Below, piece by piece: positions 2,794-41,964 of a DNA stretch of 64,000 nucleotides. Origin of the DNA: Candidatus Krumholzibacteriia bacterium. GTDB lineage: Bacteria; Krumholzibacteriota; Krumholzibacteriia; LZORAL124-64-63. The notes beneath the pieces were generated by a model that made no database searches, had not been told where the DNA came from, and worked only from the letters and a program-made list of their open reading frames with translations. The DNA is taken from positions 183,775-247,774 of the forward strand of contig CAWGRT010000008.1 of NCBI GenBank assembly GCA_963825035.1. The letters run 5' to 3'. Both the position numbers and the translations under genes were made by a program. Positions within the stretch are counted from its first letter, which is position 1. Each line of letters starts with the position of its first letter.

Positions 2794-3784
2794 ATGAAAC
2801 GTATCGGAGTGCTGACCGGCGGCGGCGACTCGGCCGGCATGAACCCCGCGGTGCGCGCGGTGGTGCGCACGGCCTGGCACCACGGCGCCGAGGTCATCGG
2901 CATCCGCCGCGGCTGGCGCGGCCTGGCCGAGGGGGCCTTCGAGACCATGACGCCCGGTTCGGTCAGCGGCATCCTGCACCAGGGCGGCACCATCCTGCGC
3001 ACCTTCCGCTACCCGGAATTCGCCACGCCCGAGGGCACGGCGCCGGTGGCCCGCAGCCTGAAGAAGATGAAGCTGGACGGCCTGGTGGTGATCGGCGGCG
3101 ACGGCAGCTTCCGCGGCGCGTCGAAGCTGCAGCGCGAGTTCGGCCTGCCCTGCATCGGCGTGCCGGCGACCATCGACAACGACATCCCCGGCACCGACAT
3201 GTCCATCGGCTTCGACACGGCCCTGAACATCGCCATCGACGCCGTGGACAAGATCCGCGATACCGCCACCAGCCACGGGCGCATCTTCGTGATCGAGGTC
3301 ATGGGGCGCGAGTACGGCCTGCTGGCCGCGCAGACGGCCATCGCCTCGGGCGCCGAGGAGGTGCTGCTGCCGGAGATCCCCTACAACCTGGACGAGGTCT
3401 GCCGACGCATCACCGCCGGCTACGACCGGGGCAAGCAGCACGCCATCATCATCGTGGCCGAAGGCGCCGGCAAGGCCAGCCACGTGACCTTCGAGATCCG
3501 CGAGCGGCTGCAGCGGGACGTGCGCATGGCGGTGCTGGGGCACATCCAGCGGGGCGGCTCGCCCTCGGGCTACGACCGCATCCTGGCCTCGCGCCTGGGC
3601 CACCGGGCGACGGAGCTGCTGTTCGCCGGCGAGTCGGGCGTGATGGTGGGCATCGTGGCCAACAAGTTCAAGACCACGTCCCTGGACAAGAAGGGCCGGA
3701 TGTCGGCCAAGGCGGTGCTGCGCGACGCGGCCAGGAGATCCTGGCCTGAGGGAGATCCTCGGCCTGAACGGAATCCCGACCTGA
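2794..3784 (+). CDS. pfkA: ATP-dependent 6-phosphofructokinase. The C-terminal end is ambiguous: candidate stops at 3747 or 3782 in other frames, while the frame-1 ORF runs spuriously on to 3975.
   Basis: [42 protein letters not shown] and HIQRGGSPS are classic PfkA motifs. ATG at 2794. The low-complexity tail after RDAARR suggests an indel near 3720-3750. Confidence 0.8.
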
Positions 3785-3804
3785 CCGCGGCCGCGCGCCG
3801 GACG

Positions 3805-3834
3805 CGAACGGGCTCCCCGCGGGGAGCCCGTTCG
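3805..3834. terminator. GC-rich perfect hairpin (cgaacgggctcc..ggagcccgttcg) between the convergent pfkA and lipoprotein genes. Likely a bidirectional terminator with no U-tract.
   Basis: Inverted repeat read directly from the sequence. It sits between two convergent gene ends. Confidence 0.45.
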
Positions 3835-7203: not shown

Positions 7204-10124
7204 TCAGGCCTCGGCCAGGGGGGAACGGTCCTGATACAGGACCAGTGCCGCGTCGGTGAGGCGGGAGAGGATCCGGTAGTGCTGGCGCGGGTCCTCGCCC
7301 CCCAGGCACAGGTACACGCCGCCGGCCACGGGCACGCCGGGAGCCCGCGTCGCCGGGGCCAGGCGGACGAAGGGACGGTCGGGCGCCGGGTCGGGCAGGC
7401 CCAGGTCGCCGGCGAGGGTGGTCCACCACGCCTGCCACAGGGCATCGTCCGGCAGTTCGGCCAGGGTGCGCCCGCCCCACTCCGCCAGCAGGGCGTCCAG
7501 GCGACGTCGCGCCGCCGGCAGGACGAGCGCCGGCGCGGCGTCCGGCTGCCGCAGCAGCAGTGCGGCCAGGTCCGCCAGGGTCGTCCCGCGGGGATCGGGC
7601 AGCGGCGCCGGCGGCCAGGGCGCCCCGGCGGCACGGCCCGGGGCCAGGCGTGCCAGGATGCCGTCGGCCGCGGCCGGCGGCGGCCCGGCGGGCGCCGCGG
7701 CCGCGTCTTCCTTCGATTCGTCGGCGGCGGTCGATTCCCCCGCGGCGGCGCCGTCCCGGCGCCATGCGCCCGCGGCGGCCAGCACGTCGGCGGCGGCCGC
7801 CAACAGGTCGCAGGGACCCGGCAGGGCCAGCCGATCGAGGCTCTCCTCGTCCACCGCCAGCCAGCCGTGGTTCCGCAGGGCGGCCGCCAGGTAGTCCAGA
7901 TCCGAGGTCAGGGGCGCGATCACCCGCAGGCGCGTCGGCAGCAGACCGTCGCTGCGGGCGGTGAGGATGCGGGCCACGCCCTGGTCCAGGTTGGCCGCGT
8001 ACTCGGCCACGACCTCGCCCCGCTCGCGGCGTCGCGGACGATTGGGCCCGGCCAGGGGCTCGGGCACCAGGTTGCGCACCTGCTCCCAGAGGCGCCGTGC
8101 CTGGTCGCTGCTGCTCCTCCAGCGCCAGCACGTCGCTGGTGCGCGGCGTGGTCAGGAAGAGGTTTTCCCAGGACTCGACCCCGGCCGCCGGGTCCACGCT
8201 CATGAGCAGGCGCCGGCCCCGGCCGTGCTGGGCGATGCGGTAGCGCACCTCCGGTGCGAAGCGTTGGATCTCCAGCATCACCACCACGTCGTCCCGGCCC
8301 GGAGAACCGGTTCCGGCCGGCGGCGGCGCTGCGGCGGGTTCGGGCAGGTCGCCTTCGTCGGTCAGGCGCAGGTCCAGAGCCAGCCCCGCGCCAAGGGCGG
8401 CGCGCGCGGCCGCCGCAGCCGCGGCGACGTCGGGGCAGTACACGGTCACGTCGCCCGGGTCGTCGCCCCGCGCCGCGGCCCGGGCCAGCCCGGCCATCGT
8501 GCTCGCCAGGCGGCCCGATCCGGCCAGGCCCCGCAGCACCAGGAAGGCGGGCTCCGCCGTCTCGCCGCCGAGGCGGGCCGTCCGGTCGACGGCCTCCGCC
8601 GCCGCGGTGCCGCCGTGGTTCCCCTGCCCGAAGAGGGCGCGCAGGCCGCCGCCGCCGACGTCCCGGTCCGCGTCCGGGGGCGTCGGCCGGCCGCCGAGAG
8701 CGCCGGCCAGGGTCCAGGCCTCGTGCCGCGTCCGCACCGTCGCGCTGTCAGCGAGGGTCAGCAGGTCCACCAGCGGCAGGGTCTCGTCTCCTGCCGGGCC
8801 GAACCAGCGCCAGAAGCCCAGGGCCGTCCCGAGGTCCAGGAACGTCTGCTCGTCCGGACGCAGTTCGACCAGGCCCGTGTCCACGAGGAAACCGCCGCCG
8901 GTCTCCACCGCCGCGCCCATCACGTCCTTGATCCGGCGCCGGAACAGGTCCACGTCGGCCTGCAGCGCCGCCAGCACCTGATCCAGGGGCCGGGTCGGTC
9001 CCGCCAGCCGCCGGGTGGAGGCCAGGGTGCCGCGGGGCGCCGCATAGACCAGGCCCGCGGTGCCGACGCCGCCGCCCAGGAGCCAGGTGTCCGCATCCTG
9101 CAGGGCTCCCGCGTCGGCCCGGGCGGGCGGCTGGGCCAGGTCGATCCACGTGCGTCCGCCCGCCGGCGTGCGCCCCAGCCACAGGGGCAGGAAGAGTCCG
9201 AGGGTCTCCCCCAGGCGATCCAGCCGGCCTTCCAGTTCGGCAAAGCGGGCCGGGATGAGCAGGGCGTGGCTGCGGGCACGTCCGTCGCGGTCGCCTGGGG
9301 CGTCGTCACCCGCGGCGGAAAGGGGATCGCCGGCCAGGCGCGCCGCCCAGCGGAGCACCCGCACCGCAGCCACCACCTGGGACGCGGCCAGGCCCGCCTG
9401 GACCGCCAGCTGCGACGCCGACACCAGTTCCCCGTCCAGGTCGGGCGACGCGCGGTCGGGAGCCGCCGCCTCCCGCCGTTCCTCCAGCAGGGGCCGCAGC
9501 CGGCCCAGCAGCCGGCGCAGTCGGGCCACCAGCGTGGCCGCCCGCAGGGCGCCGGTTTCCCCGGCCTCGACTGCGGCCGGCGGACCGTTCACCGTGACGC
9601 CCGTGGCCTCCGCCAGGAAATCGCGCCAGGGACCGGGCAGATCCCGCGCCTGCAGCACGACGGCCGGCGCCTCCAGGCGCAGCACCGCCCGCAGGGCCGC
9701 AGCCCGCACCTGGGCACGTCCCGCGGCCGGCGGGCAGCCAGGCGGGCAGGTCCGGCACCAGCACCAGCCGGGGCCGGTGGCGCGCCGTGTAGGCGGCGAC
9801 GCTGCCGTCCAGCAGATCCTCCGGCCGGACCCAGAGCACGGGCGCCGGCGCCCGGGTCCGGGCGGGCCAGGTGGAGCAGCCGGCCGCCCCGCAGCGGGCG
9901 ACGAGTTCGGCCGCGGCAGCCCAGCCCCGGGGGGCGACCACCAGGATCCAGGCGTCGAGCCGGCCCCGCTCCCAGGCGGCCTCGGCGCCGGCGAGCAAGG
10001 CGTCAGCAGACAGGCCGGATGCGCCCACTTCCAGCCGGGCACCCGTCGCGGGCCAGGCCACCGTCGCCGCATCCGCCGGTTGGTGCTCGCCCCGGGCCGC
10101 CAGCCACGCCGCAACCTCCGCCAC
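7204..10124 (-). CDS. Large uncharacterised protein of ~970 aa, frameshifted. It contains a degenerate SF1-helicase-like C-terminal motif and a Walker-A-like GLAGSGR with K replaced by R.
   Basis: GTG start at 10124 (VAEVAAWLAARGEHQ). Long protein-like run FLVDTGLVELRPDEQTFLDLGTALGFWRWFGP...FLVLRGLAGSGRLAST...DDVVVMLEIQRFAPEV..RLLMSVDPAAGVESWENLFLTTPRTSDVLALEE. After a frame change it continues VVAEYAANLDQGVARILTARSDG...GVYLCLGGEDPRQHYRILSRLTDAALVLYQDRSPLAEA to the stop at 7204. K is almost absent. Confidence 0.5.
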
Positions 10125-10259
10125 CAGGGACGGCGCCAGGCGCCGGCGGGCTTCGCCGCTGGTCTCGGGCAGGTCGAAGCAGCGGGCCCGCCCCCGGCGG
10201 CGAGCGCCGCTGCGGGTTCACCGCTCCAGGTTGCCGGCGCGGGCGCGGTTTCCGGTTGG

Positions 10260-13206
10260 TCACCGTCGTGCGCCGGCCGTCGCGCAGCAGCCGCCACCAG
10301 CGCGGATCGAGCACCTCGACCGCGCTCCAGCCTCCGGCCAGGTAGGCGGCCAGTTCCAGGCCGGCCCGGCGGACGATCTCGTCCACGCGGCCGGCCCGTT
10401 CCGCGTCCGCCGCCCGCCAGTCCGCGGCGTCCGGTCCGGCCGGGGCGGGCAGCTCACGTTGCAGCGCCGCCAGCTCCGGCACCACGAGCACGGCCGCGGT
10501 CCCCGCCGGGGGACCGGTCCCCGCGTCCTCCAGCAGATCCCACGAATCGGTGGGCACGGCGAAGCGCCCGTCCCGCGCCGCGCGCCAGAAGGCCCGCGCC
10601 GTCGCGCCGTCCGGCACGGCCACCAGGCGCCGCGGCCCGTCGGCCGCCGTCTCGACCACGTGGGCCAGGGCGGCGGCCAGGGCTTCGGCCCCCAGCCGGC
10701 GGCCGCCCGGGACCGGCGCCCCGGTCGGCCAGGGCCAGGCCGCGGCGTGCGCAGGTCGGTCAGGGCCAGGCGGTAGGTGGGCCCGTAGGGCGCCGAGCCA
10801 GCGGCCGAGGAGATCCTCCAGGTCCTCGCGGCACCACACCGCCCCCGTCAGCAGGGACAGGTGACGGCGCCCCCGCTGCAGCAGACCGTCGTGGCGGGTC
10901 GGCAGTCCGGCTTCGCCGGCCGCGGCCAGGCGGGCGTGCACCGCGGCGGCGTCCAGGAACACCCACGAGGCGTCGCTGCCCTCGAAGACGCCCCACAGGG
11001 CATCCAGCCGGGCCGGGTCCCGGGGCAGCTGGTCCACGTGTCCGGCCACGAAGCCGGCCTTGCGGGCCCGCTGGCCGAACTGGGCGCCCCAGCCGTCGCC
11101 GCCGTCGCCGCCGGCCAGGGAGGGTTCCTCCCGGGGCAGGTCAGCCACGCTCGCAGCGTAGCGGTCGTACAGGGGGAACGCCCCGGCGTGCCAGGGGCGC
11201 ACGGCCCGGAAATCCAGCAGGTCGCCGTTGTGGGTGGAGACCACCCGCGTCCAGTGGAACACCGCCAGCAATCCCTCCGCCGGATCGTCGGGAGCCGACC
11301 GCGTGCGGACCAGGTCGTCGAGTCGCGCCAGGGCCGCGTCGAGACGGTGGACCAACCCGTCGTGGGGAATCACCGTCACCGGGCCCACCACGTCCGCCGC
11401 GGCCGGAGCCAGCTCGGCCAGGCGGCCCATCCGGTCCAGCACCACCCGCCAGCGGGAGCGTCCCGCGCCCCAGGCTGCCAGCACCGCGGCCGGATCGCCG
11501 GTGGTGACCACCGCCACGTCGTTGCGGCCCAGGTCGGGATGGGACGTGGCCGCGGTCTCGGCCGCCCCCGCGCCACGGCCGGGCCGGGCGAAGGGATCCG
11601 GCCGCGTCCAGAGCAGGGGCACGGTCCAGGGCGCGAAGGAGGCGTCCATGGCCCGGGCCGCCTCGTCCCCCACCGTCAGCAACCGGTGGAGCACGCCTGC
11701 CGCCGCGTCGCCCCGGCCGGCCAGGGCCAGCAGTCCGGCCCGCAGGGACGGATCGCCCTGGGCCACCCGGGTGCGCAGGGCCAGCACCGCCAGCCCCGCC
11801 AGCAGGGCGCGCCCCAGGCCGGTGTCGGCCCGGGGATCGGTGGCCCAGTCGTCGGCGGGCCGCAGGTCCGGCGGGCCCAGTTCGCGCCGCCAGCCGGCTC
11901 GCCACGGCCCCCGTTCGCCCGCCGCCAGGCGGCGCAGGGTCGCCTCGTCCAGCCCGCTCCGGGGCAGGTCGGGCTCGGCCAGGGCTTCCACGAAGGAGCC
12001 CACGGGCCAGGCCGCCGGCGCCTCGTCCCAACAGTCGCCCACCGCGGCGAGGGTGGCCACGTCACGGGCCACGATGCGGTCGCCGCAGGGTTCGAGGAAG
12101 AGGTCGAGGGCGGAAGGGTCGTTCCCGGGGGTCCAGCGGGCGAGGTCGCGCGGTTCGGCGCCCCACCAGAAGACCACCGTCACCGTGCCGTCGCCCCCCA
12201 GGGCGGCGCTGGCCCAGGCCGCCGGCACGGCCCCGGCCCCGGGTTCGGGCCGGCGGAACTCGATGCGCGCCACGGCCGTGCCGTACCGGCCCGCCTGCTC
12301 GCTGCCCGCGGCCAGCCCCGCCGACTGCAGGGCGCCGAGGGCCTCCTCGTAGCGGGGGACGGGGAAGTGGGCCGCGTCCACGTTGGCCAGCAGCTCGAGG
12401 GTGCGGACCCGGGCCTCGTCGGCCCGCGGGCCCGGCTCGGGGTTGGTCTGCAGGTAGGCCCGGTACAGGCGCACGCTGGCCTCGGCGTCTCCCTGCAGAC
12501 GGTCGGCGGTCACGGCCTCGAGCCACGCCCGCTCCTCGGCCAGTCGGCCCGACGAACCGAAGTAGCGGGGTTGCAGGAGCTGCAGCACCGCGGCCGCCCA
12601 CTCCCGCGCCGGCCCCGAGCCCCGTTCCAGGCGCCCCTGGTCCAGGAAGATCTCCAGGAGGTCGCCGCCCCGGCGGGCCAGCCAGAGACGATCCTCCTCG
12701 GTCAGGGGCACGTCGTGCCGGATCAGCCGCACGTCGAAGACCCGGGCGGTGCGGGCGGCGGTGCGGAACAGCCCCTTCAGGAGAGGGACGGCCGAGGCGA
12801 ATTCCTCCGGGAACAGGCGGCTGCGCACCACCAGGAAGAGGGCCGTCTCGAGCACGGGCTGATTGGCCTCGGCGTCGTCCTCGGGGCGCAGTTCGGCCAG
12901 GCGCACGCCGTCGCGGACGGCGCGCTCGCCGGCGGTCAGGAAATCGCCGCGGAAGGTGGTGGCGCGCCGCTCCCAGCGCCCCGCCGCAGCCGCCGCGTCC
13001 TCGGGCGGATGCCGCCCCCGCAGCAGGCGGCGCAGGCCGTCCGCCAGGCTCTCGGTCAGGAAGACGCGGCCGGGCGAGCCGTCCCGCCGCTGCTCGGCCG
13101 CCAGGTACAGGCCCTCGGCCGCCGGGAGGTCGCCCCGACCCAGGGCGCCCTCGGCGTCGTCCAGCAGGTGCCAGTAGCTGCGATCCTTCGTCCGGTCGTA
13201 CTCCAT
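10260..13206 (-). CDS. Large uncharacterised protein of ~980 aa with a TPR-like N-terminus. No recognisable catalytic motifs. The C-terminal end is uncertain and may be frameshifted into the next gene.
   Basis: ORF 10003..13206 begins MEYDRTKDRSYWHLLDDAEGALGRGDLPAAEGLYLAAEQ. Sustained protein-like composition includes VFHWTRVVSTHNGDLLDFRAVRPWHAGAFPLYDRYAAS and WVFLDAAAVHARLAAAGEAG. The frame-1 tail after RRTTVT turns low-complexity. Confidence 0.5.
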
Positions 13207-36696: not shown

Positions 36697-36813
36697 TATC
36701 CGGGTCTCGGATCCGGCCCTTCCGGCCGTCCCATGACCGTTGCAGCCCCACCACATACGAGCCGTCAGGCGACCGACGCGGCCCCGGGCCCGTGTCCGGC
36801 CGAGGTGATTCGA

Positions 36814-37730
36814 TGAAGCTCAGCACAGCTCTGTCCCTGGTGCCGACCCTGCTGCTGGTCCTCGGCGGCGCGGCCGCCTCCGCGCAGGACGCGCCCGGCC
36901 CCGCGCCGACCGCCGCCGACAGCGCGGAGGTCGAGGCGGCCGAGGACGCCCTCGACTACGCCGACTACACGGTCAAGGCCTACAGCCTGAGCGTGTTCCG
37001 CGGCAACTTCTCGGGCGCGACCTACCTGGACCTGCACGAGCGCGCTCCCAAGACCGAGGTCTCCATCGGCGTCGGCGACAACCTCGGCGCCGGCCGACGT
37101 GCGGGGCTACGACGGCCACTACCTGGCCGTGGCCCGGGCCATCGGGCGACGGCAAGCTGCTCTACGACGCGGTGCAGAAGGAGATCAAGTCGGGTCCGGC
37201 CTACGGCGCCCGCATCGGCGTCTACATCTCCGACGATTTCCACCTGGACATCGTCGGCGCCTACGCCAAGGGCAAGGCCGTCACACGTCCATGCTCTACG
37301 TCGGGGCGACCCGGCCCGACGCAGGACCTGGTCCAGAACACCCGCTACGTGGTGGACGAGGACCCCGGCTTCGCCGTGTACAAGCGGCGGGCTGGCCCTG
37401 AACTACGACGCCCGGCCCGCCACCTTCCTGGGCCTGGTACCGCGCATCGGCTTCGGCATCGGCGGCATCATCAACCGCTTCACGGTGCTCGAGGACAACA
37501 CCTCGCTTGTACCTCGAGGGCAGGCTCGGCCTGACCCGGCACTTCGGTGACCGGTTGGGCCTCGTCGCTCCAGGCGGACGTGGTGAACTTCGCCTTCCAG
37601 GTCGAGGAGCTGGGCTACCCAACATGGTCAACTACGCCACCTTCAGCGTGGGCGTCAGCTGGTTCATCGACGTGCTGCCCGAGGCCGTGCGGGCCAGGCA
37701 CGTGGCCGACCGCGAGGCCGAGGAGAATAG
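36814..37730 (+). CDS. Outer-membrane beta-barrel protein (OmpA-like beta-barrel domain type). At least 4 frameshifts; the C-terminal end is uncertain.
   Basis: Signal peptide MKLSTALSLVPTLLLVLGGAAASAQ. Beta-strand-like segments across frames: YTVKAYSLSVFRGNFSG; ARIGVYISDDFHLDIVGAYAKGKAV; GLALNYDARPATFLGLVPRIGFGIGGIINRF; YLEGRLGLTRHFGDRLGLV; MVNYATFSVGVSWFI. Confidence 0.6.
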
Positions 37731-37771
37731 GCCGGCGACAGCGGCAGGGCGCCGCCGCGCCGAGACGGACA

Positions 37772-37810
37772 AACAAAAACCGCCGGGGTCTCAACCCCGG
37801 CGGTTTTCTC
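37772..37810. terminator. Bidirectional rho-independent terminator (A-tract, GC stem aaccgccgggg/ccccggcggtt, T-tract).
   Basis: aaacaaaaaccgccggggtctcaaccccggcggttttctctt lies between the convergent OMP and histone-like genes. Confidence 0.8.
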
Positions 37811-37842
37811 TTGGCCACGGTCCCCCGTGCGAGGGCCCGCAG

Positions 37843-38182
37843 CTACTTCTTCTTGGCCGCGGTCTTCTTGGCGGCCTTCTTCTTCGTCGCCTTCTTGGCG
37901 ACCTTCTTCTTGGCGGCCTTCTTGGCGACCTTCTTCTTGGCAGCCTTCTTGGCGACCTTCTTCTTGGCGGCCTTCTTGGCGACCTTCTTCTTGGCGGCCT
38001 TCTTGGCGACCTTCTTCTTGGCGGCCTTCTTGGCGACCTTCTTCTTGGCGGCCTTCTTGGCAACCTTCTTCTTGGTCGGCTTCTTCTTGGCGAGCCTTCT
38101 TGGCGACCTTCTTCTTGGTCGCCTTCTTCTTGGTCGTCTTCTTGGCGGTAGCAGCCGCCGTCAAGACTTTCCTCTCCTCCAT
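37843..38182 (-). CDS. Lys/Ala-rich histone H1-like / AlgP-like DNA-binding protein (~113 aa) built from tandem KKKVAKKAA repeats. One frameshift.
   Basis: ATG at 38182 with GAGG RBS. MEERKVLTAAATAKKTTKKKATKKKVAKKA, then about 8 copies of AAKKKVAKK, encoded by the 27-bp unit aagaagaaggtcgccaagaaggccgcc; stop at 37843. Confidence 0.6.
37846..38135. repeat. About 10 tandem copies of a 27-bp unit (cttcttcttggcggccttcttggcgac and variants). The repeat is in-frame coding for the Lys/Ala-rich protein.
   Basis: Direct reading of the sequence; the period is 27 bp. Confidence 0.85.
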
Positions 38183-38310
38183 ACCGGACCTCGCTTGTTG
38201 AGAGTTCCTGCGTCCGCCCGACTCCCGCACCCTTGGGACCATCGAGCAAGACCTCCTGTCACGGACGTTGCTTTCGCCTCGTTTGGCGTCAGGCTGCCAG
38301 CGGAAGCAAC

Positions 38311-38345
38311 GACATTATTTCGACCGCTCAGAAAATGTGTCAACA
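38311..38345 (-). promoter_or_regulatory. Strong sigma70-like promoter (TTGACA...ATAAT) for the histone-like gene.
   Basis: The reverse complement reads TTGACACATTTTCTGAGCGGTCGAAATAATGTCG, ~130 nt upstream of the ATG. Confidence 0.45.
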
Positions 38346-38384
38346 AAAAAAGGGAACCGTCGGCGACGGTTCCCTCTTTTTTTT
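38345..38384. terminator. Bidirectional rho-independent terminator immediately downstream of tRNA-Leu.
   Basis: aaaaaaagggaaccgtcggcgacggttccctctttttttt. Confidence 0.8.
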
Positions 38385-38469
38385 GGTGCCCGGGGCGGGA
38401 TTCGAACCCGCACGGCTTGTGGCCACTACCCCCTCAAGATAGCGTGTCTACCAGTTTCACCACCCGGGC
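38384..38469 (-). tRNA. tRNA-Leu (anticodon GAG), a class II tRNA with a long variable arm, including the encoded CCA.
   Basis: The reverse complement GCCCGGGTGGTGAAACTGGTAGACACGCTATCTTGAGGGGGTAGTGGCCACAAGCCGTGCGGGTTCGAATCCCGCCCCGGGCACCA folds as a cloverleaf with anticodon loop CTTGAGG. Confidence 0.85.
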
Positions 38470-38475
38470 CCGCGA

Positions 38476-38896
38476 CTAATTGCCGCCGCCGTCGCCGCCG
38501 CCGCCCGCCGGACTGCGTCGTCTGCGCCGGCGTCTCCGCGGGACCTGGCCGGGACGTCGGCCGGCAGCTGCGCGGGCGCCTGCTGCGTCGGCAGGTCGAG
38601 CTCGCCCTTGCGCGCGGCCTCGCCGATGATGCTCTGTGGCGGACCCGGCGGCCTCGCCCGCGTTGTCGGTGACGAAGAGCAGGAAGCTCGTCACGAAGAA
38701 GGCGGCCGCCAGCCAGATGGTCGGCCTTGTGCAGCAGCGTGGTCATGCCGCGGGAGCCGAGCAGCTGCTGGGGCGCCCCGCCGGCGCCGCCGAAGGCGCC
38801 GGCCAGGCCGCCGCCCTTGCTCGACTGCAGCAGCACCACCGCGCTCAGGACCAGGGCGACCAGGACATGGATGACGATCAAAAGCGTATGCAGCAT
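38476..38896 (-). CDS. secG: Preprotein translocase subunit SecG. About 2 frameshifts.
   Basis: MLHTLLIVIHVLVALVLSAVVLLQSSKGGGLAGAFGG..QQLLGSRGMTTLLHK, then IWLAAAFFVTSFLLFVTDNAGEAAG. The secG-tRNA-Leu order resembles E. coli secG-leuU. Confidence 0.8.
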
Positions 38897-39020
38897 GAGT
38901 CCAACTCCCGCAGGCGTCACCAATCACACGGATCACCGGTCCGACGGGGCCGGACCGGTGAGGGACGGGAAATCTAACATCCGGCCGCACGGCTGTCAAA
39001 CCGCCTGCGGCCGCGCGGGC

Positions 39021-40230
<1,210 letters not shown>

Positions 40231-40320
40231 GGTCCACCATCCGTGTCTGCGGTTGCGCGCCCGCACGGGGCGCCGCGGCATGGCGCCGCCGGACCATGTT
40301 AGGAGGGCCCCCGGGGTGTG

Positions 40321-41052
40321 TCAACCGGACCCGACGCGCACGCCCAGGGCCAGCGCCGCCACCGGAGCCCGGCCCGCCGCGGCCAGGGCCCGCGCCGCCT
40401 CGGCGAGGGTGGCGCCCGAGGTGACGATGTCGTCCACCAGCACCAGCCGGCCCCTCCGCAGCGGCGCGCACGGGTCGGCGCGGCAGCAGCCGGCCAGGTT
40501 GCGCCGCCGCGCCGTCGTCCGCCGCGAGCCGCGCCTGCTGGGCCGTGGCCCGCACCGCGCCGCAGGGCCCGGCACCCAGGTCCCGCCCGGCGTCGCCGGC
40601 CAGCAGCCGCGCCAGCAGTTCGGCCTGGTTGAAGCCGCGCTGCCGCCGCCGGCGGCGGTGCAGGGGCACCGGCACCAGCACCGCCGGCGCGCCCAGGCCC
40701 CGCGGCCAGGGCGCGGGCCGCCGGCGCCAGCAGCGCGGCCAGGGGCCAGGCCAGCCCCCGCAGCCCGTGGTACTTCCACGGCGCCGACGACGGCCACCAG
40801 GTCGGCGCCGGTGGCGCGCGCCGCCCACACGGCGGGACAGCCGTCGCGCGGGCCGGCGCCTCACGGCCGGCCCCTGGTCCAGGGCGGCGCGCGCAGGGCC
40901 GGCACAGGTGGGGCGCGTCCAGGGACGCAGCCCCGGCACGACCGCACCGCGGTCGCACCAGGGGCGCTCGGTGCGGCCGGCACCGCAGCGGACGCAGCGT
41001 TCCGGCGCCGCCAGGTCCAGCAGCGCCGTCAGGGGTGCGAGGAGGGACGGCA
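40321..41052 (-). CDS. comF: ComF-family phosphoribosyltransferase (competence protein F-like). Frameshifted.
   Basis: GTG start after GGAAAGG. PSLLAPLTALLDLAAPERCVRCGAG (zinc-finger-like CxxC); VPVPLHRRRRRQRGFNQAELLAR; LVLVDDIVTSGATLAEAARALAAAG. Confidence 0.7.
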
Positions 41053-41085
41053 CGGCGGCCGCCTTTCCGGGAGGCGGGATCGGGA

Positions 41086-41964
41086 TCAGAACAGGGCGGA
41101 GCGCATGGCGGTCCAGGGCACCGGCGGCCCGAACCACCAGGCGAAGGACAGCCCCCCCTGCATCATCAGCACGGGCAGACCGTCGCTGTCGCGCACCCCC
41201 AGCGGCAGGGACTCGGCGGGTCGTTGGTCGCCGTAGCGCAGGTCCAGCAGCAGAGCGTGCTGTGCCCCGGCGGCCACCGGCAGGTAGGGGACGCAGGGCA
41301 CGCCACCGGCCAGGCAGCACACCCAGACCGTGGGCACCAGGGGCGGCGCCTCGCCTTCGGTCTCCAGGGGCAGCACCGCCACCCGCTCGCCCAGGCCGCG
41401 ACTCTTCAGCCAGGCGGCCGCGCGCTCGCGCCCGGCCGCCGAGCGGTTGCGCAGCTCCAGCTGCGGCACCTCCCAGCGCAGCAGGGCGTCCAGGCCCGCG
41501 CGGCCCGAGCCGCCGGCACCCAGGACCACGCCCCGCAGGGGCGGCGTCTCCCCCTGCCAGGCCTGGGTCAGCACCGCCAGCACGCCGCCGCTGTCGGTGT
41601 TGTGCCCCAACCAGCGCCCGTCCTCCACCTTCACCGTGTTGACGGCGCCCAGGTCCCGCGCCTGATCGGTGCGGCCGTCGCAGAGGGCGGCCACCGCCTC
41701 CTTGTGGGGCGCGGTGACGTTGAACCCCGCCAGCAGGCCGTCGCGGGTCTCCCGCTTCAGCGCCGCCAGGTCGGCGGCCGCCACCTGCAGGGCCACGTAC
41801 TCGTGGGGCAACTCGCGGTCGTCCAGGGCGGCGTTCTGCATGGCCGGCGAAAGGGAGTGGCCGATGGGATCGCCCACCACGGCGTAGAACGGCTGGTCCG
41901 GCCGCCAGGGCTCACCGCCTCGCCGCCACCCGCCGCGGCCGTAGGTCACCACGTCCGGGTTCAC
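41086..41964 (-). CDS. aroE: Shikimate dehydrogenase. The N-terminal start is uncertain.
   Basis: FYAVVGDPIGHSLSPAMQNAA..GFNVTAPHKEAVAALCD..GAVNTVKVEDGRWLGHNTDSGG..VVLGAGGSGRA. Confidence 0.8.
   Translation of the reverse strand: MNPDVVTYGRGGWRRGGEPWRPDQPFYAVVGDPIGHSLSPAMQNAALDDRELPHEYVALQVAAADLAALKRETRDGLLAGFNVTAPHKEAVAALCDGRTDQARDLGAVNTVKVEDGRWLGHNTDSGGVLAVLTQAWQGETPPLRGVVLGAGGSGRAGLDALLRWEVPQLELRNRSAAGRERAAAWLKSRGLGERVAVLPLETEGEAPPLVPTVWVCCLAGGVPCVPYLPVAAGAQHALLLDLRYGDQRPAESLPLGVRDSDGLPVLMMQGGLSFAWWFGPPVPWTAMRSALF

Follow-up and report, generated by a model that had tools for sequence, protein, structure and literature searches.

A lysine/alanine tandem-repeat gene with a conserved structured leader on a Krumholzibacteriia contig

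The lysine-rich gene and its transcription signals

We describe a short gene for a lysine- and alanine-rich tandem-repeat protein on the minus strand of a 64,000-nucleotide (nt) stretch of a Candidatus Krumholzibacteriia contig. This whole stretch is the window, and all coordinates are positions in it unless a locus is named. The coding sequence, stop codon included, occupies 37843..38182 and is readable once a single extra C at 38092 is skipped. The open reading frame (ORF) starts at an ATG at 38182 with MEERKVLTAAATAKK (also written MEERKVLTAAATAKKTTKKK or MEERKVLTAAATAKKTTKKKATKKKVAKKA) and then leaves the lysine frame, which resumes one base on and terminates at a TAG at 37845..37843. An original prediction, made from the sequence alone, had placed a minus-strand lysine ORF with 27-bp repeats at this position, which our analysis confirms, all of its coordinates being accurate.

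The tandem array (37859..38147, minus strand) has a period of 27, with 10.6 copies, 87% matches and a score of 410 in Tandem Repeats Finder. After removal of the one base, its core comprises six near-identical 27-nt units encoding AKKKVAKKA, three consecutive ones being identical. The predicted figure of about ten repeats therefore holds for the total count, but six are core units and the remainder are degenerate flanking units. In the repaired protein, KKKVAKKAA occurs seven times, where about eight had been claimed, and KKKVAKKA occurs eight times. At the third codon position, GC content is 0.93-0.97 in the lysine frame versus 0.33-0.50 in the other two phases (window GC 72%), and for this reason the lysine frame is taken as the coding frame.

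The repaired product is 112 amino acids (aa) long, one residue short of the approximate length first proposed (113 aa), and contains 57 Lys (51%), 32 Ala (29%), 9 Val, 8 Thr and one Pro, giving a net charge of +56 and a pI of about 11.4. About 12 non-repeat residues precede the repeats. No Pfam family matched this protein at E ≤ 10 (PF00538, PF07432 and PF00216 were absent), and a scan of NCBIfam gave a single match, to the Burkholderia H1-like family NF038053 at 10.5 bits (E = 0.54). Membership of that family fails because the cut-off is 80. A protein database search was dominated by the Lys/Ala tails of SWIB, BlaI-type and L21 proteins, with one sequence, P0009, as the sole true relative. 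Near-identical KKKVAKKA-type tails stand on SWIB proteins, BlaI-type repressors and L21 proteins of other bacteria (P0001, P0008, P0003 and P0012); as they are found at either protein end, the tail behaves as a portable module. AlphaFold2 predicts one uninterrupted helix for the window-encoded 82-residue repeat (pLDDT 94), consistent with the fact that Ala/Lys peptides are known helix formers. We set this helix aside as a functional clue, since one long helix is not discriminating.

The gene has its own transcription signals. A sigma-70-type promoter occupies 38314..38343 on the minus strand, where TTGACA (38343..38338) is separated by an 18-nt spacer from AATAAT (38319..38314). This arrangement matches the consensus at 11 of 12 positions, and the one site found compares with 0.0 expected in shuffled sequence. 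A promoter of the form TTGACA-17/18-(A/G)ATA(A/C)T lies at the same place in 26 of the 28 family loci whose upstream sequence is long enough. Between promoter and start codon runs a conserved 5′ leader (38183..38313, minus strand), common to all family loci, of which about 125-130 nt are transcribed from an inferred start near 38307. The Shine-Dalgarno (SD) sequence GAGG (38189..38192, minus strand) lies six bases before the ATG, inside a conserved block, AAGCGAGGUCC, and the AUG of the MEER start is in frame at every locus. Downstream, an intrinsic terminator (37770..37803, minus strand) consists of a GC-rich stem-loop, CCGCCGGGG-UUGAGA-CCCCGGCGG (37803..37780), followed by the U-run UUUUUGUUUG. 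The surrounding 3′ region (37846..37770) folds at -49.7 kcal/mol (z = -5.8), with none of 200 shuffles equally stable. An A-run on the opposite side makes the terminator potentially bidirectional, so that it may also serve a convergent plus-strand gene. The promoter and terminator claimed in the original prediction are thus both borne out, as is the standalone nature of the gene, across about 30 independent loci.

The upstream neighbour, and the marker of the locus, is a gene for tRNA-Leu(GAG) on the same strand (38384..38469), with its own terminator hairpin at 38351..38375. The T-run of this terminator (38338..38350 region) runs straight into the -35 box of the lysine gene, and may consequently double as an AT-rich upstream promoter element. 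The same compact junction of terminator and promoter recurs across most family loci.

A gene family at a fixed chromosomal address

Family loci were collected in two ways: by synteny with pgk (loci L003, L009, L002 and L110), and by a DNA search pattern derived from leader and start-codon sequence, AGCGAGGTCC-N2-6-ATGGAGGAGAG, which yielded 29 metagenome loci. When the synteny loci were scanned for lysine-rich frames, the gene turned up immediately behind tRNA-Leu(GAG) in L003 and L009, and in L002 it lay 4 kb farther along. Of 21 family loci scanned, 19 likewise have the tRNA gene upstream in the same orientation, as do L003 and L009. In L001 (7869..8022) and L004 (7026..7254), which by pgk are among the nearest genomes, a different, Cys/Pro-rich ORF follows tRNA-Leu(GAG) with no promoter or leader motif; either the lysine gene is not universal at this address, or these short contigs stop too early.

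All but one of the 29 pattern-found loci encode an intact, in-frame N-terminus of the form MEE[RS]-x-x-[LM]-x-AA, followed by lysine repeats only. In an alignment of 21 members, M1, E2, E3 and A10 are invariant, and R4 and A9 are at least 90% conserved. Complete proteins (n = 23) range from 61 to 162 aa, with a median of 105 and a lysine content of 44-57%, and the gene is standalone and single-copy. The window protein conforms to the family, having an N-terminus of the form MEE[RS]-x2-3-[LM]-x-AA that leads directly into lysine repeats, and a lysine content above the lower bound of 44%. The exact start is less clear. In the GC-poor locus L009, GAGGAGAG serves as the SD sequence for an AUG aligned to family codon 7-8, and UUG, CUG or AUG stands at that position in most family members, so the true N-terminus could be about seven residues shorter.

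The repeats themselves differ by lineage, with units of five residues (KKKAT, KKKVA or KKKVV), nine residues (KKKVAKKVA or KKKVAKKAA), or the form KKAKKKVA. The choice of lysine codon shifts too: AAG and AAA number 56 and 1 in the window (GC 0.72), 64 and 26 at a GC of 0.54, and 21 and 27 at a GC of 0.42. Lysine codons thus track genomic GC while composition stays constant, from which it follows that selection acts on the protein, and this argues for translation.

The lineage of the window was approached through pgk and the closest relatives of the gene. The best matches to the repaired pgk product come from uncultured members of the FCB group, namely DOLZORAL124_64_63 (74%) and MFD01299.bin.2.49 (72%), followed by Glo_17 and Bin_270 (68%), with Chlorobi and others at about 56%. 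The closest gene-level relative, P0009, derives from a metagenome-assembled genome (MAG) labelled Candidatus Krumholzibacteriia. DOLZORAL124_64_63 is presumably the genome of a 'Delphibacteria' member from the dolphin mouth. GTDB places Delphibacteria within Krumholzibacteriota (10.1101/2023.07.10.548433). Judged by these best matches, the window most likely belongs to an uncultured FCB-group bacterium of the Krumholzibacteriota, and the family occurs in Krumholzibacteriota-like contigs.

Protein databases represent the family poorly. An exact look-up of six family proteins in a collection of 15 billion proteins found none on record, because gene callers pick other start codons (P0016, for example, starts upstream). 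A profile search with 21 N-termini returned two matches only, P0016 and P0017, which says little about how far the family extends, and the single NCBI entry for the family is a 'hypothetical protein, partial'. The repeat also defeats assembly. Of 30 metagenome contigs, seven stop within it, and in L110 the region 3680..3808, encoding the C-terminus of P0009 (the sole ortholog with an NCBI annotation), is chimeric, with about 50 aa of repeats, unrelated sequence, and an inverted CTTCTTCTT at the contig edge. L110 was consequently dropped as a check on the 3′ end of the gene. A general caution over assembly, as voiced in the original prediction, is justified, since assemblers fail on this repeat. 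Length ranges widely across the family, but the accompanying proposal of a hypervariable repeat number is not supported at strain level, where the closest pairs, with leaders 93-98% identical, differ by 0-4 aa; this comparison covers few close pairs.

A structured leader with a near-invariant loop

The original prediction overlooked that the mRNA leader of this gene is both conserved and structured. It comprises a 5′ stem-loop, a linker with an SD-like AGGAGGU, a hairpin that we designate P4, and a tail, AAGCGAGGUCC, before the AUG. Mean column identity is 84% among 15 class-A leaders including that of the window. The block AAGCGAGGUCC is shared by the window, L002, L003 and L110, all of which were found without using it as a search pattern. 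Rfam gave no match to the leader (38183..38313) at gathering score or at E ≤ 10. Across the window only tRNA passed the gathering score, and a scan of 38100..38400 at E ≤ 10 returned nothing but noise on the terminator hairpin at 38318..38400.

The element best supported by comparison is P4 (38212..38252, minus strand). Its outer helix is GUC-UUGCUCGA/UCGGGCG-GAC, its inner helix UCCC/GGGA, and its loop AAGGGUGC (38234..38227). The apical loop reads (A/C)(A/U)GGGUGC in nearly every sequence while the stem beneath varies, taking forms such as UCCC/GGGA, CCCGC/GCGGG, CCUGC/GCAGG and ACUCC/GGAGU. P4 folds singly, with the motif at its apex, in 30 of 30 sequences. A 32-sequence alignment has 88% of its cells paired, with compensatory change at 13 of the 14 pairs. 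The covariation score is 0.412; column shuffles give 0.165, none of 500 attaining the observed value, and slid partners give 0.084 at most. RNAalifold independently recovers the helix. A covariance model, R1, built from 15 sequences scores 114.9 bits at P4, its sole site in the window, and in 939 kb of fetched loci it detects nothing but this gene. The GC-poor L009, found by synteny, carries an analogous hairpin, CAGCC-AAGUGCGUA-GGCUG.

The 5′ stem-loop (38265..38313, minus strand; loop AGCCUGAC, closing helix CUGGC/GCCAG, outer helix GCUUC/GAGGC) begins at about the inferred transcription start and folds singly in all 15 class-A leaders. Its conservation is mostly at the level of sequence, with little covariation, and other leader classes have a different 5′ hairpin. 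At the 5′ base of P4 lies a perfect SD-like AGGAGGU (38253..38259), some 70 nt before the AUG. The 15 aligned leaders of classes A and E all carry it unchanged, and the other classes lack it; one possibility is that it acts as a ribosome standby site.

Between P4 and the AUG, the leader folds weakly and inconsistently. A start-masking helix suggested by RNAalifold (CUCUC:GAGAG) was rejected, as it shows no covariation and is broken in L082, L089 and L104. An SD-adjacent helix, GGA(U/A)C:GGUCC, recurs in a weak and inconsistent form. A conserved upstream ORF was likewise rejected, the in-frame ATG at 38242 being specific to the window.

Interpretation and relation to known systems

On balance, we think it probable that this is a conserved, tail-only gene whose abundant product binds polyanions such as DNA without specificity, that its synthesis is restrained through the leader, and that its frameshift is an error. 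From the composition of the protein and the conservation of the leader, we infer the following course of events. Transcription would proceed from the near-consensus sigma-70 promoter, through a leader of about 130 nt, to the strong intrinsic terminator. The protein would be made in large amounts, and its lysines would bind polyanions, chiefly chromosomal DNA, irrespective of sequence. A helix would probably form on binding, and as the charge of the backbone was neutralised, the nucleoid would be compacted or bridged, in the manner of the H1 tail and Hc2. Given the potential toxicity of such a polycation, the cell would probably restrain its synthesis post-transcriptionally via the conserved leader. 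The hairpin with the GGGUGC loop would then be the recognition site for the lysine-rich protein itself or for another trans-acting factor. We further advance, tentatively, the idea that the leader is a new cis-regulatory RNA whose GGGUGC hairpin is bound by the lysine-rich protein, or by a factor tied to the state of the nucleoid or of polyanions, in a feedback loop that sets dose.

Several points count against this interpretation. A polycation of this kind has no less affinity for RNA, ribosomes or polyphosphate than for DNA. Its likeness to H1, Hc2 and AlgP is compositional; homology is undemonstrable in low-complexity sequence, and domain-based membership tests fail. The confidence that AlphaFold2 attaches to its predicted helix says little, for a Lys/Ala repeat, on the folding of the free protein. 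The start codon, as read from the sequence, is uncertain by about seven codons. As to the leader, AGCGAGGTCC and ATGGAGGAGAG are invariant in L081-L109 by construction, these motifs having been part of the search pattern, and the alignment from which covariation was scored had been fitted to the model. The whole leader of the window is not unusually stable when folded singly against shuffles (z = -0.13), so that all structural support comes from comparison. Finally, no ligand or partner was found for the GGGUGC loop.

The first of these points leads to the strongest alternative, in which the gene and protein are as described and the partner is another polyanion: polyphosphate (polyP) granules, ribosomal or other RNA, or the gene's own mRNA leader. 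The product would then space granules, chaperone RNA or act in association with ribosomes. The leader hairpin, with its invariant loop and supporting covariation, fits such a role, structured leaders with invariant loops being typical of self-regulating RNA-binding proteins such as ribosomal proteins. In other bacteria, ribosomal protein L21 and several regulators carry the same kind of Lys/Ala tail, and AlgP, of near-identical charge (+55), sits on polyP granules and spaces them (PMC9239181). However, the locus has no link to ppk, to polyhydroxyalkanoate (PHA) genes or to ribosomal operons, its neighbours being pgk, secG, tRNA-Leu and the convergent gene. Among the polyanions available, DNA is much the most abundant, and characterised tails of this type all bind DNA in vitro. 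We regard a non-DNA partner as rather unlikely, though it deserves serious consideration.

The remaining alternatives concern the gene itself, and the first of them turns on the extra C at 38092 (minus strand; aaggctCgccaag), which moves the lysine frame by +1 and whose deletion restores an ORF of 112 codons. The frameshift noted in the original prediction is present in the sequence, yet it is best read as an indel error, and not as part of the biology of the gene. Single-base indels abound in the neighbouring minus-strand genes (pgk and a ComF-like gene at 39025..41100, and secG at 38500..38900). pgk (about 40250..39025) reads as a well-conserved protein only with at least seven frame changes, and secG and the ComF-like gene are similarly broken. 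L110, the nearest relative with annotation, carries an intact pgk of 399 aa with 83% DNA identity, against which that of the window shows 15 one-nt insertions and four small deletions. Aligned to the same locus, the base at 38092 is a 1-nt insertion at exactly this position. In L103 and P0009/L110, the N-terminal 29-30 aa are identical to those of the window and continue in frame through the site, and no shift is needed in any of about 30 family members. Because single-base indels occur window-wide and some 30 homologous loci are in frame, we treat the frameshift as a sequencing error. On this sequence evidence, it very probably arose as an error in an assembly rich in indels, and it reflects assembly quality instead of gene biology.

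A genuine frameshift would mark either a recently inactivated pseudogene or a slippage-type on/off switch. The extra C is, after all, present in the given sequence, repeat-rich genes are classic slippage substrates, and the site, gctCgcc, is not one of the homopolymers where sequencing errors usually cluster. Nevertheless, we judge it improbable. At the indel rate of the window, whose essential genes carry many such changes, one to four errors are expected per 340-nt gene. Slippage by whole units of a 27-bp repeat cannot give a 1-nt phase switch, and the other family members are all in frame. The unrepaired alternative frame, moreover, would pass the terminator and reach 37664.

It is more improbable still that the repeat is untranslated, be it tandem DNA with no coding role, a product of faulty assembly, or what remains of the tail of a larger, broken gene. 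Such low-complexity tandem DNA is open in all six phases here, gene callers mostly miss or mis-start the gene, and its exact sequences are absent from the collection of 15 billion proteins. Against this, only the lysine frame has a third-position GC near 0.95, and lysine content is kept while repeat unit, length and codon choice shift with lineage and GC. Promoter, SD sequence, ATG and terminator also bracket exactly this frame in about 30 loci, the gene being standalone in all. The chance of a programmed +1 ribosomal frameshift joining both frames is close to nil: its sole support is the +1 offset between the two halves of the lysine protein, there is no slippery or hungry-codon context, about 30 homologs need no shift here or elsewhere, and the indel load across the window is the simpler cause.

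Since the window is rich in single-base indels, any frameshift or pseudogene call within it should be distrusted. The convergent plus-strand gene (36780..37700) has a signal-peptide-like N-terminus, MKLSTALSLVPTLLLVLGGAAASAQ, and is split by frame changes; it gave no Pfam match because indels fragment the ORF. L002 likewise carries a convergent gene. On the other side, 40300..41000 reaches a GC content of 81-85% and overlaps the homolog of a 241-aa phosphoribosyltransferase/ComF-like ORF of L110, for which the only matches were weak ones to PF00156 and a double zinc ribbon. L002 also has an insertion of about 3.9 kb (7848..11744) between tRNA-Leu and the promoter of the lysine gene, relative to the near-identical L105. 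The insertion contains a long opposite-strand frame of 1265 codons from stop to stop, which by eye appears to resemble a PAS/sensor kinase.

H1-like Lys/Ala tails recur in bacteria (Hc2, BpH1, AlgP and HupB), and have been studied in no more than a few cultured pathogens. The present family is a minimal form, essentially the tail alone at one chromosomal address, in uncultured Krumholzibacteriota/Delphibacteria. As gene callers and short-read assemblers both fail on the gene, metagenomic surveys probably under-count abundant nucleoid proteins of this kind. Further, the leader offers a testable handle on how cells dose a polycation of charge +56. Should it prove to be a regulatory RNA, it would be the first described case, outside Chlamydia, of an RNA element dedicated to the control of a bacterial H1-like protein, and the feedback loop, if it exists, would set how much of this H1-like chromatin polycation cells contain throughout a candidate phylum.

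The protein joins the known class of bacterial H1-like Lys/Ala repeat proteins as a tail-only member specific to its lineage, and belongs to no family defined so far. The family itself is new, as are its fixed position behind tRNA-Leu(GAG) and the covariation-supported leader hairpin, which is absent from Rfam. The original prediction likened the protein to the tails of H1, Hc1, HupB and AlgP. As a statement of composition this stands, but there is no H1, Hc1 or HU domain, and NF038053 is matched far below its cut-off.

One of the closest known systems is the DNA-condensing protein Hc2 (HctB) of Chlamydiota, in which short Lys/Ala-rich tandem repeats also dominate the protein and size is set by their number. 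Hc2 binds DNA and varies in length through the number of its lysine-rich repeats (PMC2848022). Its units are pentamers, and relatives of the window gene use 5-aa units as well (KKKAT, KKKVA and KKKVV). In contrast, Hc2 is organised in 36-aa super-units, whereas the window protein has a 9-aa (27-bp) unit and no 36-aa organisation was seen. The two also differ in lineage (Chlamydiota versus FCB), in the MEER..L.AA N-terminus of the window protein, and in that no developmental cycle is known for the window lineage. The conserved cis leader of the window family has not been described for hctB.

Proteins of the BpH1 type from Burkholderiales and Bordetella (NF038053, hist_H1_lk_Burk) are likewise standalone Lys/Ala repeat proteins annotated as DNA binders of the H1-like type, and have been noted as Hc2-like (PMC2848022); the window protein falls below the NF038053 cut-off and is not a member. 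AlgP and PhaF share a basic Lys/Ala tandem-repeat tail, with a net charge of about +55 in AlgP. The KPAA tail of AlgP is DNA-binding, with a repeat region that is a hot spot for mutation, while the protein localises to polyP granules and is needed for their spacing (PMC9239181). Unlike the window protein, which is tail-only and has one Pro, these proteins possess a helical N-terminal domain of 124 aa and proline-containing KPAA units. The C-terminal domain of eukaryotic H1 resembles the window protein in its Lys and Ala content, in some Thr, Val and Pro, and in charge density; both would be expected to be disordered when free, to form helix on DNA, and to neutralise charge. Even so, the window protein has no winged-helix domain (PF00538) and no nucleosomes to act upon, and H1 tails are not exact tandem repeats. 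HU proteins of the HupB/MDP1 type differ by their HU/IHF domain (PF00216), and Hc1 (HctA) by its N-terminal domain (PF07432), both absent from the window protein by Pfam scan.

Two precedents bear on the leader. One is the autoregulatory leaders of ribosomal proteins; the leader of the window, with its invariant loop, matched no Rfam family. Translation of hctA is repressed by the small RNA (sRNA) IhtA (PMC3469542, PMC4355289), and here too a very basic, potentially toxic nucleic-acid binder is encoded by an mRNA with conserved regulatory RNA features. IhtA, however, is a trans-acting sRNA that pairs at the start of hctA, whereas the window gene carries a cis hairpin about 30-70 nt upstream of its AUG.

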